From: Desulfosudaceae bacterium
Lineage (GTDB): Bacteria; Desulfobacterota; Desulfobacteria; Desulfobacterales; Desulfosudaceae
Direction of reading: 5' to 3'
Assembly: GCA_963674745.2 (NCBI GenBank)
Contig: CAXXDV010000003.1
Location: 2,144,001-2,208,000, forward strand
Length of the DNA stretch: 64,000 bases
Positions 27,536-62,361 of the stretch are shown here, one piece after another; within the stretch, counting starts at the first letter, position 1; each line of letters begins with the position of its first letter. Position numbers and translations under genes: made by a program. Below the pieces are notes generated by a model. It had not been told where the DNA came from. It saw only the letters and a list, made by a program, of their open reading frames with translations, and did not search any database.

Positions 27536-27833
27536 AAGGGTTCAAGGGGCCAAGGTTCAGGAGCCATCGGTCGTTCGCAAATGTTGTAGGGGCACGGCGT
27601 GCCGTGCCCTTTTGTCAAGGTTCGGGGTTCAGGGGCGCTTACCATTCATGAAAACCCGACACCTGAAACCTAAAACGCTAACACCTGACACTTTAAAACC
27701 CTAAAACTTTAACACCTTAAAACCCGACCACAATCGGGCACGGCATCGCCGTGCCCCTACATAACCACTTAATCACTTAACCACTTAACCACTTAACCAC
27801 ATAATCACATAATCACATAATCACATAACCACC
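27536..27833. repeat. composite intergenic repeat: GGTTCRR heptamers, inverted pair of GTAG REP hairpins, C-rich heptamers, 9 x octamer TAA(C/T)CAC(T/A/C)
   Basis: REP GTAGGGGCACGGCGTGCCGTGCCC at 27586-27609, inverted copy at 27736-27760, octamer array at 27762-27833. Confidence 0.88.
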
Positions 27834-27956
27834 TAAAACGCCAACATCTTCCAAGCCCGGCAATTAACCCCTTGCCATAAATTATCCGCCAATGATATAT
27901 CACAATTATATGTAAATTCGCTATTAAAACCGAGATTTCAAGATGGAGCAGATAAA

Positions 27957-33333: not shown

Positions 33334-36300
33334 TCAAAAGCGTTTGCCGCCGTTGCCCCTGAATCCGTTTCGTCTTGGTTTTCTCTTTTGGCCCCACTGC
33401 TCCGCGCCGGGTAACAACTGGCAACCGGCACGAACCGATTTATAGCCGAGCAGGGCCTCGACCCGGTCCGACAGGACCGTGCCCGGCGACAACTTCAGGG
33501 TTTCAGGCAGCGCAATCACTGTTTCCTGCTTTCCGGCAGATACCAGATGCAGAAATCCCTTACAGGTCCCCGCGTTTTCGTCAAAAATGGTTTTCAGTTC
33601 CGACAGCATTTCCCTGGTGGTAATTTCGGTATCAATCGTGCAGTGCACACTGGGCTGCCAGGCTTCACTCGCTTTTTCAATGGGCACAATACGTTCGGCC
33701 TGGAGCGTAACGGCCGACTCGGACTTTTCCAGGTTCCCTTCCACGAAAACCGGTGCGTCTTCAACCAGCAAATCTGCCACCAGCTTGAAAAGGGTGGGAA
33801 AAACAATCACCCGCAACGGGCCATAAATATCCTCAATAGAGATGTCGGCCATCAACAGGTCTTTTTTGGTCCGCTTGCGATTCACCGTGGTAATGGTGCC
33901 GCCGATGATCACATGGGCTTTGTCTTTCATCTCCCGGATGCCGACCGAATCGGCATTGGCGTATCTGGCCAGCTGATCCCTGTAATTGGAAAGCGGGTGC
34001 CCGGTCACATAAAAGCCCAGGGCTTCTTTTTCAAAAGTAAGTCGTTGTTTTTCAGACCATTCCGGGATATCCGGGAGAACCGGCGCGTTAATGGTTGTCT
34101 GGGTTTCTTCCAGATCAAAAAACGTCATCTGGGCATCCGCGCGTTCACGCTGGATTGTCTGACCGTGGGACAGGGCATCCTCGGCAGCCGCCATCATCGG
34201 TGCCCGTTCCGCACCGGTTGAATCAAAGGCGCCGCACTTGATCAGGCTTTCCACCACTTTTTTATTTACCTTGGCCAGGCTGACACGTTCACAAAAATCA
34301 AACAGTGAAAGATAGCGCCCATTATTCTCCCGTTCTTCGACCAGCACTTCGATAGCGGCTTCACCCACATTCTTGACCGCCAGCAGACCGAAACGGATAC
34401 GGCCGTCGATAACGGTAAACCGTTTCTCGCTTTCATTGATATCCGGCGGAAGAATCTCAATCCCGGCGGTACGGCACTCGGCAATAAACTTGACCACGTC
34501 ATCCGGATGGGCCATGGCACTGGTCAACAGGGCGGCCATGAATTCCACCGGAAAATGCGCCTTTAAGTAAGCTGTCTGGTAGGCGATCAGGGCGTATGCG
34601 GCGCTGTGAGACTTGTTAAACCCGTACCCCCCGAAGTATTCCATCTGCCCGTATATATCCCGGGCGATATTCTCACTGATGCCGTTCTTGACCGCGCCGG
34701 ACACAAAAATATTGCAGTGCTCGGCCATCTTTTCCATATTTTTCTTGCCCATGGCCTTGCGGAGGTCATCGGCCGAACCCATGCTGTAGCCGCCCAGCGA
34801 CTGGGCGATCTTCATCACCTGTTCCTGGTACAGGATCACACCGTAGGTTTCTTTCAGAATCGGTCCCAACTCAGGCGCGAGATATTCAACCTTTTTACGT
34901 CCGTGTTTTCTTTCAATAAAATCTTCAATCATACCGCTGCCCAGCGGGCCCGGCCGATACAACGCCACCAGGGCGACGACATCCGAGAAAACGGCCGGTT
35001 TCATCTTGACCAGGATTTCCTTCATGCCGGAACTTTCAAGCTGGAATACACCGGTGGTATCCCCCCGGGAAAGCAACTGATAGGTCAATTCATCATCCAG
35101 TTTCAGACGGGACATATCAGGCGCATCCTGGCCCTGCCCCGATATCAGGGTAAGGGCGTCCTGAATCACCGTGAGATTGCGCAACCCCAGCAGGTCCAGC
35201 TTGACCAGTCCGATGCTTTCAACGCACTTCATATCAAACTGGGTGGACACCTCCCCTTCTTTCACTGAATACAGCGGCAGGTAAGTCGACAACGGTTTGT
35301 CTCCGATCACCACCCCGGCCGCATGGGTCGAAGCGTGCCGCGGCAGCCCTTCCAAGGCTTGACCGGCTTTCATCAACTCACCGAATTCGGATTTGGATGC
35401 GATCATGTCCTTGAGCGCGGGTTCCTTTTTCATGGCATCTTCAAGGTCGTCGCTGTCAGGGGGTATCAACTTGGCAATGGCGTCGACTTCATAAAGCGGA
35501 ATATCCAGCACCCGTCCCACATCCCGGATGGCAGCCCGGCTTTTCATGGAACCGAAGGTAATAATATGGGCCACAAACTCCTCGCCCCGTATTTTTCCAC
35601 CAGGTACTTATAAACGCGATCCCGGCCGTTGATGCAGATGTCCACGTCAATATCCGGCATGCTCTTGCGTTCGGGGTTGAGAAACCGTTCAAACAACAGC
35701 CCATGCTCGATGGGATCAAGGTCGGTGATTTTCAGACAGTATGACACCAGGCTGCCTGCGGCCGACCCGCGGCCGGGACCGATGGGAATGCCATTGTTTT
35801 TGGCAAATTCGATAAAATCCGATACGATCATGAAATATCCCGGAAACTCCATATTTTTAATAACGGATATCTCATATATCAACCGCTCTTTATAAACCTG
35901 CTCGTCAGCCCCGGGATTATTGACCTGGATGCTCTTTTTCCTTTGTTCAAAACCGGCCCATACTTTTTCTTCAAAATAATCTTCGATTGATTTGTTTTCA
36001 GGGGTCTCAAAGCGTGGAAAATGGAGGGTTTTAAAATCAAGCTCGACATTGCATCGCCGTGCGATTTCTACCGTATTGTCGGCCGCCTGCGGAAAACTTT
36101 CCAGAAAAGCCCGCATTTCGTGGCCGGGCTTGAAATTAAGCTGATTGGTCTCAAACTTCATGCGATCGGTGTCATAAATGGTTTTCCCGGTCTGCAGGCA
36201 TAAAAACAATTCATGCATGCCGCTGTCCTCAGGATCCAGATAATGACAGTCATTGGTGCCCACCAGGGGTATTGAAATCCTCTGGCTCATGTCCCTTAAG

Positions 36301-36890
36301 GCATGGTTCAAGGTCTCCTGCTTGTCGATACCGTTGTTCTGGACTTCCAGAAAAAAGCGGTCTTCACCGAATATTTCGCAGAACGACCTGGCCGCGGCAT
36401 CGGCCTCATCGGTTCTGCCCTGCATCAGCAACTGGGGGACTTCTCCTCCCAGGCAGGCGGACAGACCGATCAGCCCTGAGCTGTATTCCCTCAGCACTTC
36501 CTTGTCGATCCGGGGTTTATGATAAAACCCCTTTAACGAAGAGAGGGTGACCAGACGGCAAAGGTGTCGATAGCCTTCCATATTTTCCGCCAGCAGCACC
36601 AGGTGGGAAAGTCCTTCGTGGTCCTGGGGGGTTTTATCGGCCATTGTTCGCGGTGCCAGGTAACATTCACAACCGATGATGGGCTTTATTCCGGCCTTTA
36701 CCGCCGCTTTGTAGAAATTGACCACGCCGAACATGTTGCCGTGATCGGTAATGGCCACTGACGTCATACCGTATTTTACGGCGCGTTTTACAAGGGATTT
36801 GAGACGGATGATACCGTCCAGAAGGCTGTATTCGGTATGGACGTGAAGATGGACGAAGTTCGCGGCTTCAGTTTGGGACATAGTTTCCAC
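33334..36890 (-). CDS. dnaE: DNA polymerase III alpha subunit, interrupted by a 1 bp frameshift (ORFs 35544-36890 and 33334-35574)
   Basis: N-part: [31 protein letters not shown]-part: [25 protein letters not shown] fold. Adding one G to the G4 run (35585-35588) restores [15 protein letters not shown] and a ~1185 aa protein. Confidence 0.95.
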
Positions 36891-36928
36891 AAAAAACTTT
36901 TGGGGGTTAACGGATAGTCCGTTTTTTA

Positions 36929-37490
36929 AGGTTTTAGAGTTTTAGGGTTTTAGGGTTTTAGGGTTTTGGTGATTATGTGGTTAAGTGGTTAAGTGTTTAA
37001 GTGGTTAAGTGTTTAAGTGGTTATGGGGTTATGGGGTTATGGGGTTATGTGTTTAAGTGGTTAAGTGGTTATGTGGTTATGGGGTTATGGGGTTATGTGG
37101 TTAAGTTAAAAACGGATTCGATCGTTTTTAAGTTAATCGAACTTGATCGTCTGGATGACTATCTGCAAAAGCATTTTTCCGGACAGCCTGTGTATAGACA
37201 AAATAATTTGCCGTTTGTGCCATATTGAATTGCAGGTTGATCTTCCCTGATGCAATCCCGCCGATCTGCCACGCCCCCTTAAACACGTAATCACTTAAGC
37301 ACCTAAACACAAGACACTTTAGAACCAATTGCTTAAATGCCAGGGCTGCACGAGCGCCGAACACTTAACCACTTAATCACATAAACACTTAAACACTTAA
37401 ACACATAATCACATAACCACTTAATCACATTATCCTTAAACGTCTAAGCAACCCAACGCCCCGACGCTTAAACATTTAATCACAAAACCA
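36929..37490. repeat. composite element copy A: 22 phased G-rich octamers, 174 bp core, inverted C-rich octamers
   Basis: 5 x (G/A)(G/A)GTTTT(A/G) plus 17 x G(T/G)G(G/A/T)TTA(A/T) at 36929-37104; core 37105-37278; (T/A)TAA(C/T/A)CAC units 37279-37490. Confidence 0.9.
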
Positions 37491-37504
37491 CCTGAGCCCG
37501 CCGC

Positions 37505-38965
37505 TTATTCAACCCGATAGTTGGGTGCCTCCTTCGTGATAATGACATCATGGACGTGGCTTTCCCGCAAGCCGGCGGCGCTGATCTTCACAAAGCGGCC
37601 TCTTTCCCTGAGTTCATCAATTGTCCTGCAGCCAAGGTATCCCATACCGGCCTTCAACCCGCCGATCAGCTGGATAATGTTGTTCCCAATGGTTCCCCGA
37701 TAGGGTACCCGGCCGACAATCCCCTCCGGGACCAGGAGCGTATCATCCACATCGTCCGTCTGATAGTACCTGTCCTTGCTGCCCTGTTTCATGGCCTCGA
37801 CCGAGCCCATTCCCCGGTACACCTTGTAACTCCGCCCCTGATAAAGGACCGTTTCCCCCGGACTTTCTTCGGTCCCGGCAAACAGGCCGCCGATCATAAC
37901 GGAATGTGCACCGGCCGCAATCGCCTTGGTCACATCACCGGAATATTTGATACCTCCGTCGGCAATCAGCGGCACACCCGACTTGTTGGATACGGATTTG
38001 CAGTTCATAATGGCCGACAACTGAGGCATGCCTACGCCCGCCACCACCCGGGTGGTGCATATCGACCCCGGGCCGACACCGATTTTAACACCGTCAACGC
38101 CGGCTTCGATCAGGGCTTCCGCCCCCTTACCCGTGCAGACATTACCGGCAATGACTTCCGCATTTTTAAAATCGCCTTTAACCATCTGAACGGTTTTAAT
38201 AACGTTTTGCGAATGACCGTGGGAAGTATCAATAACGAGGACATCCGCACCGACATTCAACAGTGCTTCCACCCGCTGGGGTGTATCTTTGCTGACGCCA
38301 ATGGCGGCACCCACGCGAAGCCGGCCCAGATTGTCCTTGCAGGCCTGGGGAAATTTTTTCACTTTTTCAATATCCTTCATGGTAATCATGCCGACCAGGC
38401 CGCCGGACTTGTCCACCACCAGCAGCTTTTCAATTTTATGCTGATGAAGCAGTTCCTTGGACTCTTCCAGGGTGATGCCTTCCGGAACGGTCACCAGGTT
38501 TTCGCTGGTCATGACTTCGGACACTTTCCTTTCAAGATCGTTTTCAAAACGCAAGTCCCGGTTGGTCACGATGCCCACCAGCCGGCTGCCCTGGGTCACC
38601 GGCACACCGGAAATGTTATACTCACGCATCGTTTTCAACACACTGCTGATCGGCAAATCCGGAGAGGTGGTCACCGGGTTGACGATCATGCCGCTTTCTG
38701 ATTTTTTCACACGGCCGACCTCAAGGGCCTGCTGTTCAATACTCAGATTTCGATGAATAAAGCCGATACCCCCTGCCCGGGCCATACTGATGGCGGTTGC
38801 CGACTCAGTGACGGTATCCATGGCCGCACTGACAATGGGAATATTCAGTGAAATATTTTTAGTCAGATGGGTGGCGGTAACAACATTTTCCGGCAGCACA
38901 TCTGAATAGCCGGGAATCAACAGAACATCATCAAATGAATAAGCTTCATCAGGGGATATTTTCAT
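37505..38965 (-). CDS. guaB: IMP dehydrogenase
   Basis: [11 protein letters not shown] pair, [31 protein letters not shown] before the ATG at 38965. Confidence 0.98.
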
Positions 38966-39187
38966 AATCTTTGAACCTCCGAACATACTGTTATTATAAC
39001 GAAATCGTCGCAGAGTTGCGCGCACACAATAAAAAGCGACCTTCTGAAAGAAGCATTTTACATCAAATAACAAAAGATAATTTACTTTACAATCTTTTTT
39101 ATTTAAGGTTTTATGGCCGAATTAAAGAAAAAAGACGATAGCGCCTGGACCTGAAACAAAAAATCAACCGACAACGGACCGAACGAC

Positions 39188-39796
39188 ATGATTTTTCGTA
39201 TTAACCCGGATAACCCTCAGAAACGACTTATTAATAAAGTAGTGGAGATCCTGCGTGAAGGCGGCATAATCGCTTATCCCACGGATACCTTTTACGGCAT
39301 CGGGTGCGATATTACCTGCAAAAAAAGTGTGGAAAAAATTTACAACATGAAACAGCGCACCCGTACCAAACCATTCAGTTTTATCTGCAGTGACCTGAAA
39401 AACATCAGCCAGTACGCCAAGGTGAGCAATTACGCTTACAAAACCATGAAACGGTTGTTACCAGGGCCCTATACCTTTATCCTGGAAGGTTCACGACCAC
39501 TTCCGCGAATTATGGTTTCCAAGCGCAAAACAGCCGGTATTCGCGTGCCCAACCATAAAATATGTATTGATATTGTACGGGAACTGGGCAATCCCATTAT
39601 CTCGACCAGTGCCACCAGTCCGGATAAAACCGTGTTTGATGATCCTTCTTTTATTGATGAACACTACGGTCACCAGATCGATGTGGTCATCGACGGCGGT
39701 CCGGTACCGTCAAAGCCCTCGAGCGTTATCTCACTGATTGGTGATGAACCGGAAGTGATCCGCGAAGGGCTCGGGGATGTGAGCATATTTGTTTGA
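39188..39796 (+). CDS. Sua5/YciO/YrdC-family protein (YciO-like; threonylcarbamoyl-AMP synthase fold)
   Basis: AYPTDTFYGIGC, KQR...KP, PGPYTFIL, GIRVP, STSA, IREGLG. Confidence 0.9.
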   Translation: MIFRINPDNPQKRLINKVVEILREGGIIAYPTDTFYGIGCDITCKKSVEKIYNMKQRTRTKPFSFICSDLKNISQYAKVSNYAYKTMKRLLPGPYTFILEGSRPLPRIMVSKRKTAGIRVPNHKICIDIVRELGNPIISTSATSPDKTVFDDPSFIDEHYGHQIDVVIDGGPVPSKPSSVISLIGDEPEVIREGLGDVSIFV

Positions 39797-39858
39797 GGCC
39801 AGGCTCCGGATAAAGTACTGCAAAGCTAGAAGCCATTATGTCATAACAAACGTTTTAG

Positions 39859-40086
39859 GTGATTATGTGATTATGTGTTTATGTGGTTAAGGGACGGGGA
39901 AAACCGGCAGGATTGCATCAGAAAAGATTAACCGACAGATTCAATAACGGCGCAAATCATTCAGGCTATAGGCTGTCCGGAAAGGTATCTTTGCAGATAG
40001 CCATTCAGACGCCCAGGTCCTATTATTACGAATATTCCCGAACCCGGTTGCCACCTAACCACTTAATCACCTAATCACTTAACCAC
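39859..40086. repeat. composite element copy B: 4 G-rich octamers, 164 bp core, 4 inverted octamers
   Basis: Core 39891-40054 aligns by eye to the reverse complement of 37105-37278. Confidence 0.88.
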
Positions 40087-40089
40087 ATA

Positions 40090-40995
40090 CTAAGGCTGAT
40101 ACAAATACCCGCCGTAAAAGGTTCGTTCGGCGGCAACGCGATGGATCAACTCAGCCGTTGACATGCCGGTCAGCAGTTCAATCATGGACAGACTTCTTTG
40201 CTGCGGAGGATAGACAGGAACGATTTTTCCTTTTATACCGGCCAGCCGCCCGGCCATTTCAATCGCATCTTCCAGATTGCCCAGTTGATCAACTAGGCCG
40301 ATTTCCGTTGCTGTCTTACCGGAGAATATACGGCCGTCGGCTATTTTTTTAACGGCTTCAACCGTCATACCGCGTCCCTGAGCGACATCAGAAATAAACT
40401 GACCATGCAGGTCATCGGCAAAGGCCTGAAGGAGCGCCTTCTCCTCTTCGGTCATCTTCCTGACCGGAGAGGCGATGTCTTTATACCGCCCGCTTTTGAT
40501 GACCACCGGCGAGAGACCAATTTTACCGAACAAATCTTCAAGATTGGTATAACTCATGATCACGCCGATGCTGCCGGTAATCGTTCCCGGGTTGGCCATA
40601 ATCGTATCTGCGGCCGAAGCCACATAGTAACCGCCGGAAGCGGCCAGCGAGCCCATGGAAGCCACAATTTTTTTCTTTTCTGATGCCTTGCGGATTTCCC
40701 GGTAGATTTCCTGTGATGGCCCCACACCGCCGCCCGGGGAATCAATTCTGACAACAACCGCCTTAATTGACGGGTTTTCACGAAAGGCTTTTAATTGATC
40801 AACCGTATCTTCAGCGTCCATGATGGCGCCTTCGATTTTCACCACTCCCACCTTTTCTCCCAGTTCAAAAGTGGTGGTCTTTCCTGAATAGGTAAACATG
40901 GTGGAAAAAATAGCGGATATAAGAATGATACCGCCCAGAGTCATGGCGGTAAACATCAGGATAAAAAAAAGAAAAGGATGCCTTCTGGAAAACAT
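40090..40995 (-). CDS. sppA: signal peptide peptidase SppA (36K type)
   Basis: RIDSPGG, AASGGYY, TGSIGV, KSGRYKD, DGRIFSG. Confidence 0.95.
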   Translation of the reverse strand: MFSRRHPFLFFILMFTAMTLGGIILISAIFSTMFTYSGKTTTFELGEKVGVVKIEGAIMDAEDTVDQLKAFRENPSIKAVVVRIDSPGGGVGPSQEIYREIRKASEKKKIVASMGSLAASGGYYVASAADTIMANPGTITGSIGVIMSYTNLEDLFGKIGLSPVVIKSGRYKDIASPVRKMTEEEKALLQAFADDLHGQFISDVAQGRGMTVEAVKKIADGRIFSGKTATEIGLVDQLGNLEDAIEMAGRLAGIKGKIVPVYPPQQRSLSMIELLTGMSTAELIHRVAAERTFYGGYLYQP

Positions 40996-41031
40996 AATGA
41001 CGCTCCGTCCGGGCACTCACAGCGCTAATTA

Positions 41032-43208: not shown

Positions 43209-43332
43209 GTGATTATGTGGTTATGTGGTTAAGTGATTATGGGAGCCATCCGCAAGGCGCAAGATGAGTACACGTAGGGGCAGGCCCCTGTGCCTGCCCT
43301 GATGAAGGGCAACCACGAGGGGTTGCCCCTAC
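43209..43332. repeat. 4 octamers plus GTAG REP doublet (REPIN/BIME-like)
   Basis: GTG(A/G)TTA(T/A) x4 at 43209-43240; GTAGGGGCAGGCCCCTGTGCCTGCCC (43274-43299) and inverted GGGCAACCACGAGGGGTTGCCCCTAC (43307-43332). Confidence 0.88.
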
Positions 43333-43355
43333 AACATTTACGAACGGCCTGCGTC

Positions 43356-62276: not shown

Positions 62277-62361
62277 GTGGTTAAGTGGTTATGTGGTTAT
62301 GTGATTATGTGGTTATGTGAATATGGTCGGGTGATAATGTTGCGGAAGGCTTTAGCCTTCC
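62277..62361. repeat. 6 G-rich octamers plus REP-like hairpin
   Basis: GTG(G/A)(T/A)TA(A/T) x6 at 62277-62324; GGAAGGC-TTTA-GCCTTCC at 62344-62361. Confidence 0.85.

Follow-up and report, generated by a model that had tools for sequence, protein, structure and literature searches.

We analyzed a 64-kb stretch of DNA (hereafter, the window) from a Desulfosudaceae bacterium (GCA_963674745.2, contig CAXXDV010000003.1, positions 2,144,001 to 2,208,000), whose complete genome comprises 5.55 Mb in three contigs (C1, C2 and C3). At the locus of interest, two related non-coding sequences, cores A and B, are each framed by arrays of tandem octamers, forming units A and B, and these units bracket a pair of genes. 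The first gene is guaB (37505..38965, minus strand), which encodes a 486 amino acid IMP dehydrogenase (PF00478, E 1.7e-159), and the second is a Sua5/YciO/YrdC-family gene (39188..39796, plus strand; sua5), which encodes a 202 amino acid protein (PF01300, Sua5_yciO_yrdC, E 3.2e-57). Unit A lies downstream of guaB, and just beyond it is the N-terminal part of dnaE (35544..36890, minus strand), with PHP and DNA_pol3_alpha domains. Unit B lies downstream of sua5, and beyond it are the S49 peptidase gene sppA (40090-41016, minus strand; PF01343) and rpsA.

Core A is a 174-nt loop on the minus strand (37105-37278), supported by its alignment to core B, its fold and the lack of any coding or Rfam signal, and core B is a 164-nt loop on the plus strand (39891-40054), supported by its alignment to core A and its fold. 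The global alignment of both cores contains 122 identical positions, 25 transitions, 13 transversions and 18 gap columns, and its score of 122 is far above that of 500 shuffles (mean -40, sd 10, maximum -14). By blastn, the cores are 72% identical over 146 nt (E 6e-14), and an exact search of the window with either of the two anchor motifs gives two matches, one in core A and one in core B. An initial annotation, made by eye from the letters of the window, had proposed that the cores are homologous from end to end, and the alignment, the blastn comparison and the shuffles bear this out at the positions given above. The two conserved blocks it singled out match at 25/29 and 35/42 positions, and all 11 mismatches within them are indeed transitions. 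Short-read contigs of sequencing run X1, which is probably the source sample, show 0 differences over 36978-37401 and 38816-40600, a range that includes core A and all of unit B.

The flanking arrays were also recovered with Tandem Repeats Finder (TRF), with a period of 8, 83-91% matches and, as described in the initial annotation, GTGRTTAW-type units on one side of each core and their reverse complement on the other. In unit B, the left arm consists of 4.4 GTGRTTAW units (39855..39890, plus strand; TRF at 39855-39889 and regular expression) and the right arm of 4 reverse-type YTAAYCAC units (40055..40086, plus strand; regular expression, with TRF giving 4.5 units at 40051-40086), which stop 3 nt short of the stop codon of the S49 peptidase gene. 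Unit A is nested. One of its arms is an array of 17 units of the GTGGTTAW/GGGGTTAT type (36969..37104, plus strand; TRF score 158, regular-expression run of 17 units), next to which, near the start of dnaE, lies an outer array of 5.5 TTTTAGGG units (36924..36967, plus strand; TRF, 91% matches), a type that flanks several other units of the genome too. On the guaB side, about 4 reverse-type WTAARCAC units touch core A (37280..37311, plus strand, read from the sequence), as they do at core B, and are followed by a unique spacer of about 47 nt (37312..37359, also read from the sequence), which base-pairs with itself when the whole unit is folded, and by an outer arm of 8.6 WTAAYCAC units (37360..37430, plus strand; TRF, regular-expression run of 8 units). 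Decayed units extend past 37430 to about 37495, reaching the guaB stop at 37505. The nested arrangement fits an inner unit placed within an older bracket. On their 5' side, the core-adjacent arrays are similar in size (about 4 units each at A and B); total array content is unequal, with 17 and 8.6 units plus outer arrays in unit A and 4.4 and 4 units in unit B.

A regular-expression search for at least 3 consecutive units identified 194 GTGRTTAW arrays in the genome, 93 on the plus and 101 on the minus strand, with a total of 1007 units, while the three contigs read backwards as a control gave 0, 0 and 2 arrays. Four of the unit variants are present in near-equal numbers (GTGATTAA, 179; GTGATTAT, 167; GTGGTTAA, 160; GTGGTTAT, 158). 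According to a crude longest-ORF map, none of the 194 arrays is located inside an ORF, all being intergenic, and they are dispersed over all three contigs with a hot spot at C1:0-250 kb. These first 250 kb carry 48/90 of the arrays of C1, and within them a run of minus-strand genes (C1:221500-241000) has an octamer array in nearly every spacer, mostly in one orientation. A bias of the arrays with respect to the replication strands was considered and rejected, because the contigs disagree.

The arrays have a marked preference in their relative orientation. Among neighboring arrays within 1.5 kb of each other, 32 pairs are convergent (+-) and 3 divergent (-+), with 10 pairs in ++ and 6 in -- orientation. 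The array-core-inverted array layout of the initial annotation is therefore real and non-random (32 vs 3), but the core does not have the arrays as termini of its own, since they also flank 30 other, unrelated middles and many of them are solitary. The 32 middles of convergent pairs are 28-913 nt long, and those other than cores A and B share only other small repeat families, chiefly a palindrome of about 60 nt of the GTAGGGGC type. In many units, TTTTAGGG-type arrays form a second tier on the outside, and the array is followed at once by a G-rich junction (GTGGKCSGGGTTT...). The units occupy their spacers nearly from gene to gene. Four middles (U13, U14, U28 and U30) hold small ORFs, which have no match to a Pfam family. 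The bracketed ORFs encode 66-144 amino acids (C3:273089-273289, 411346-411609, 2269033-2269359 and 2590313-2590747), three of them with hydrophobic stretches as judged by eye. Of 201 genomes sampled from the order, 4 contain an exact match to four consecutive units, with 130 matches in the genome analyzed here, 24 in one congener, 41 in a complete genome of another family and 3 in one more.

Other repeats accompany the arrays. A multi-copy palindromic family of about 25-60 nt (GTAGGGGCA/GGGCACGGCGTGCCGTGCCC type) occurs in at least 12 of the 32 middles and, within the window, at 27590-27620, 27735-27760 and 43275-43340. The window also carries arrays of the octamer family and of the CCTAAAAC type at 27651-27836, 43209-43241 and 62277-62325, all without a reverse-complement partner array, the first two adjoining GC-rich palindromes. 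A 70-nt module, M1 (e.g., C3:220564-220633), is present in 8 copies on C1, C2 and C3 with 80-100% identity, and 6 of these copies lie directly behind a reverse-type octamer array in a fixed relative orientation, which makes M1 a dispersed repeat linked to the arrays. The junction between octamer units, GTTAAGT, matches GTTRRRY, the consensus of the integron attC core. Three integron integrase genes score above the TIGR02249 cut-off (C3:2348261-2349205, C1:2117407-2118342 and C3:27977-28915); none of the arrays in our list adjoins them.

In contrast to the arrays, which bracket many unrelated loops, the core has two copies, located 2.6 kb apart in inverted orientation. The initial annotation had suggested that further copies be sought in the genome and its relatives, and none were found beyond A and B. 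Specifically, neither blastn with a word size of 7 nor nhmmer --max, run with a profile built from both cores, revealed a third copy in the genome (next nhmmer match E 0.17). Among 40 relatives, the only matches were 19-32 nt long with E 0.006-0.009, and we read them as chance (core B in G019 and G028; core A in G008, G027 and G032). Searches of the genome_contigs and metagenome_contigs collections with two patterns each gave 0 matches, although patterns whose fixed letters must match exactly let diverged copies escape, and no match was found in plasmid and phage collections. These observations suggest that the arrays are the repeated entity and the core is one piece of cargo, and the closeness of its two copies (2.6 kb in a genome of 5.5 Mb) suggests that copying took place locally.

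To identify empty sites, we performed a comparative analysis of the orthologous loci in related genomes, as the initial annotation had advised. The gene order rpsA-sppA-sua5-guaB-dnaE is conserved in the congener G002, and rpsA-sppA-sua5-guaB is found on a shorter contig of a second congener, G001. The spacer between sua5 and sppA is 293 nt long here, about 20 nt in G002 and about 18 nt in G001, with unit B (arrays, core and about 58 nt) standing where the congeners have their spacer of about 20 nt. Unit B and its arms are thus absent from both congeners as a block, and the simplest explanation is a lineage-specific insertion. The situation differs at unit A. In G002, the spacer between guaB and dnaE (about 310 nt) contains inverted arrays of its own, built from a related unit, around an unrelated short middle; this spacer has therefore carried arrays for a long time, and core A is lineage-specific. 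Unit U13, which is 1 kb long and holds small ORFs, has no counterpart in G002, in which the spacer is 216 nt long and free of arrays, and the spacer of U12 has a single six-unit array there. In total, two of the four orthologous spacers compared with G002 contain other arrays and two contain none. Contigs from two sediment metagenome runs (X3 and X4, about 90% alike) match the window through 39671-39894, from sua5 to where the left arm of unit B ends, and continue with unlike sequence. A relative could conceivably carry the bracket of unit B with another loop.

Next to unit A, dnaE (33334-36890, minus strand) is present as two overlapping ORFs of 448 and 746 amino acids, with the break near 35544-35580. 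Both parts are in a single frame in G002 and G007, and the frame change is located at a G run (TACGGGGCGAGG), so that the split is either a real frameshift or a homopolymer assembly error.

On balance, and with moderate confidence, we interpret the arrays as a genome-wide class of intergenic simple-sequence repeats, and the cores as cargo, copied once, locally and in inverted orientation, that forms the loops of octamer foldbacks. As part of this interpretation, and with the same reserve, cores A and B would be sister copies of a species-specific, non-coding stretch. Unit B would have been inserted into a roughly 20-nt spacer, which is retained in both congeners, either by duplicative insertion of a whole foldback or by recombination guided by the homology of the arrays, and each arm would thereafter have changed its copy number separately by slippage. 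If transcribed, the arms are predicted to base-pair with each other, giving the guaB and sua5 messages a long imperfect stem at their 3' ends, which could plausibly serve as an RNase III substrate or a 3'-end structure, by analogy with the intervening sequences of rRNA.

Folding of the whole units and the composition of their arms are in line with this scheme. The arm-to-arm fold of unit B has a free energy of -70.6 kcal/mol (z -3.3; 1/200 shuffles as good) and the nested-arm fold of unit A one of -183.5 kcal/mol (z -8.2; 0/100 shuffles as good). When opposite arms were compared in the order of their units, 959/1200 positions matched, compared with 970 +- 7 when the order was permuted, which rules out arms that mirror each other unit by unit. 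The lack of mirroring fits a separate drift of each arm, as slippage predicts, and perfect pairing of the arms is not maintained.

Several points weigh against this interpretation. No enzyme is linked to the arrays. No target-site duplication was seen by eye at the edges of unit B, although array limits are difficult to draw. That the congeners have no unit B could also reflect one precise deletion of the hairpin in their common ancestor, and the outgroups are uninformative in this respect, as G003 has 3.4 kb of other DNA at this site and G061 is without sppA. Finally, the two hairpin blocks of the cores have changed less than the remainder, with no pair broken, and this conservation could indicate that the core itself is under selection.

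The last point bears on an alternative in which the core acts as a functional structured RNA, or as a single-stranded DNA motif specific to one strand, with A and B as paralogues. In this view, two hairpins are maintained by selection on the strand that is sense to guaB and sua5. The hairpins were located by folding at about 37235-37258 (hairpin 1) and 37157-37188 (hairpin 2) on the minus strand in core A, and at 39910-39933 and 39971-40002 on the plus strand in core B. RNAalifold predicts 30 pairs in the two cores, with 0 broken, 1 compensatory change (A-U to G-C) and 5 one-sided G-U/G-C changes, and the G.U pairs are workable on the guaB/sua5-sense strand only. The hairpin of the second block, its compensatory pair and its G.U pairs, all noticed in the initial annotation, were thus seen again. 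Two sequences are too few for a covariation test. In a pair-retention test, a structure was taken from one core, and the pairs kept in the other were compared with those kept under random placement of the same substitutions. The structure derived from core B retains 32/39 pairs in core A (P 0.024), and the antisense controls gave P 0.90 and 0.28, but the structure derived from core A retains 30/45 pairs in core B, which is at the level of chance (P 0.70). For the two hairpins, in which all 20 pairs survive, random placement of the 46 substitutions gave P 3e-4; this test is post hoc, with hairpins chosen after the data, and its P value mostly reflects the smaller number of substitutions there.

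Other observations on the cores speak against this alternative. Folding of the cores alone gave no greater stability than that of shuffled sequence (sense strand, z -1.44 and +0.36; antisense strand, z -0.73 and -0.18). The Rfam search proposed in the initial annotation gave no family; with Rfam 15 covariance models applied to 36800-40200 at E up to 5, the only rows were two chance snoRNA matches in guaB (E 0.13 and 3.3). Promoter-like sites (8 vs 4.7 +- 2.3 in shuffled sequence) and terminator-like sites (3 vs 3.8 +- 1.9) show no excess. Together with the occurrence of two copies in one species and none in its congeners, these results make a selected RNA or single-stranded DNA motif unlikely, in our judgment.

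A transposon resembling a MITE (miniature inverted-repeat transposable element), that is, a non-autonomous family defined by the core with tandem arrays as its termini, appears more doubtful still. It would account for the presence of unit B here and its absence in the congeners, as well as for the similar size of the 5'-side arrays of both cores (about 4 units), and M1 demonstrates that dispersed modules linked to arrays do exist in this genome. Against it stand the number and proximity of the copies, the lack of a visible target-site duplication, the lack of copies among the public contigs, plasmids and phages searched, and the 30 unrelated middles and single occurrences of the GTGRTTAW arrays. 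Nor is there a related longer copy with an ORF, as the initial annotation had recommended looking for. In the end, with two copies, covariation at one pair and overall structure retention that is not significant, the proposal of that annotation that the core is a mobile family or a structured RNA was not upheld under the refuting condition that the annotation itself had set.

It is likewise improbable, to a similar degree, that plain spacer DNA was first duplicated locally and in inverted orientation, long ago, and that the arrays grew later and independently around each copy. The independent evolution of the arms and the unlike array content of units A and B would agree with such a history, but the sua5/sppA spacers of the congeners, with their roughly 20 nt, contain no visible older copy of the spacer, and more steps are required than for one insertion of a whole unit. 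That the cores are decayed fragments of a protein-coding gene can practically be dismissed: short ORFs run through both of them (53, 78 and 63 amino acids) and the conserved blocks share a frame with a net length difference of 9 nt, but the A/B mismatches have no codon periodicity, tblastx of A against B gave no standout frame and found no match below E 0.01 in the genome and the orthologous loci, and both genes of the genome for PF05635, the 23S rRNA intervening-sequence protein (IVP/S23p), lie elsewhere. The non-coding appearance noted in the initial annotation, with no protein match, is accordingly retained.

The two PF05635 genes (C1:232504-232809 and C3:569937-570227) are themselves associated with tandem arrays. 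The gene on C3 is flanked by (GTTGAGGG)n and (CTCAACCC)n, and at the gene on C1 an array of 19 GTGGTTAW units lies on one side, with TTTTAGGG and GTGRTTAW units on the other, in direct orientation. The latter gene falls within the array-rich gene run at C1:221500-241000. In five genomes of this family and G061, inverted arrays of 6-8-nt units surround 8 of 11 PF05635 loci, with a unit that is specific to each locus. In a sample of the phylum, 86 of 151 genomes carry a PF05635 gene; among the best 30 loci, arrays are present within 350 nt on both sides in 22, on one side in 7 and on neither in 1. Inverted arrays of 5-11-nt units were found, under a lenient rule, in 18 of these 30 best-scoring loci (of the 22 two-sided ones), and each locus has its own unit sequence (loci L026, L027 and L034-L073). 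Arrays are present in 38/44 spacers adjacent to PF05635 genes and in 8/16 other spacers of the same loci (Fisher P 0.006, with a small control). A literature search, conducted largely without subscription journals, found no paper stating a general link between IVP genes and flanking tandem arrays. We also considered whether the presence of PF05635 tracks that of GTGRTTAW arrays and rejected this, as there is no correlation: G006 and G007 have the gene without arrays, and G084 has 3 pattern matches without the gene. No relic of PF05635 was detected in cores A and B by the genome-wide PF05635 search or by tblastx.

Based on these loci, it is conceivable, and we propose it only tentatively, that array-bracketed foldbacks together make up a single, widespread class of mobile cassettes that end in tandem arrays of 6-9-nt units rather than in fixed inverted repeats. 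Its autonomous members would bear the gene for the four-helix-bundle IVP/S23p protein, whose pentamer would read the repeated units, and GTGRTTAW brackets such as unit B and U13 would be non-autonomous forms that capture and copy arbitrary loops. If the brackets are indeed cassette ends tied to the IVP protein, a common orphan protein family would gain a function, and such cassettes would also account for the intervening sequences of rRNA and for a large part of the microsatellites found between bacterial genes.

The units A and B resemble several known systems in part. In MITEs, one body recurs in many copies, the terminal inverted repeats are fixed and target-site duplications are present. 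Like them, and like repetitive extragenic palindromes (REP), bacterial interspersed mosaic elements (BIME) and the long simple-sequence repeats of prokaryotes reportedly treated by Mrazek et al. in 2007, the units are small, non-coding, intergenic and prone to form hairpins. They differ from MITEs in that their arms have no mirrored unit order, their body is present in two copies and no target-site duplication is seen. Foldback (FB) elements of Drosophila, which are known to transpose, have long inverted arms made of short tandem repeats in variable copy number, and heterogeneous loops. Both the array-built inverted arms and the heterogeneity of the loops recall the units described here, although FB elements are eukaryotic and there is no evidence of homology.

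The intervening sequence (IVS) in the 23S rRNA gene of Coxiella is described as forming a stem from terminal inverted repeats that is cut by RNase III, and as containing variable tandem heptamers ahead of an S23p ORF, for which decay is reported (PMC4990558). Units A and B are similar to such sequences in the long stem formed by terminal inverted repeats, around a loop that in the IVS occurs with or without an ORF (PMC4990558). Unlike these, units A and B are located between protein genes and contain no IVP ORF or relic. The TAACTGA repeats of marine Beggiatoaceae, reported as 169 direct sets and one indirect repeat, are also abundant intergenic arrays, in that case of a heptamer, with a patchy distribution across lineages; they form direct sets, in contrast to the convergent pairs found here (PMC4679880).

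The closest described relatives of these arrays are the convergent heptamer pairs of Xanthomonas. In that genus, 70 and 75 convergent pairs of GGGAATC arrays per genome are described, which are intergenic and have no link to insertion sequences and no known function, and GGGGA(C/T)T repeats are described in Nostoc (Rehm et al., 2015; PMC4692102). The initial annotation had not recognized the units as belonging to a described family, but convergent 7-nt array pairs are on record in Xanthomonas (PMC4692102). As in Xanthomonas and Nostoc, the units here are short, tandem and intergenic, with hundreds of arrays per genome and variable copy number, and as in the Xanthomonas pairs there is one array per strand in convergent orientation (PMC4692102). 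The features of this class that were examined are all found here, namely head-to-tail units of 5-11 nt, intergenic dispersal, convergent pairs and variation among close relatives. The arrays of our genome differ in being built from an octamer, GTGRTTAW, most variants of which have no G-quadruplex capacity (G runs occur in GGGGTTAT and TTTTAGGG only), in the two-tiered organization of many units, with the TTTTAGGG type outside and GTGRTTAW inside, and in loops that reach 913 nt and may hold small ORFs or a duplicated segment. Since such a class is already in print for heptamers, and a reading of the core as a new mobile element or RNA gene is not sustained, this case is of value as a clear illustration. 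It combines a complete genome holding about 190 arrays with an orientation bias of 32 to 3, two cases in which a whole unit is present here and absent from congeners, and a loop that has demonstrably been copied.

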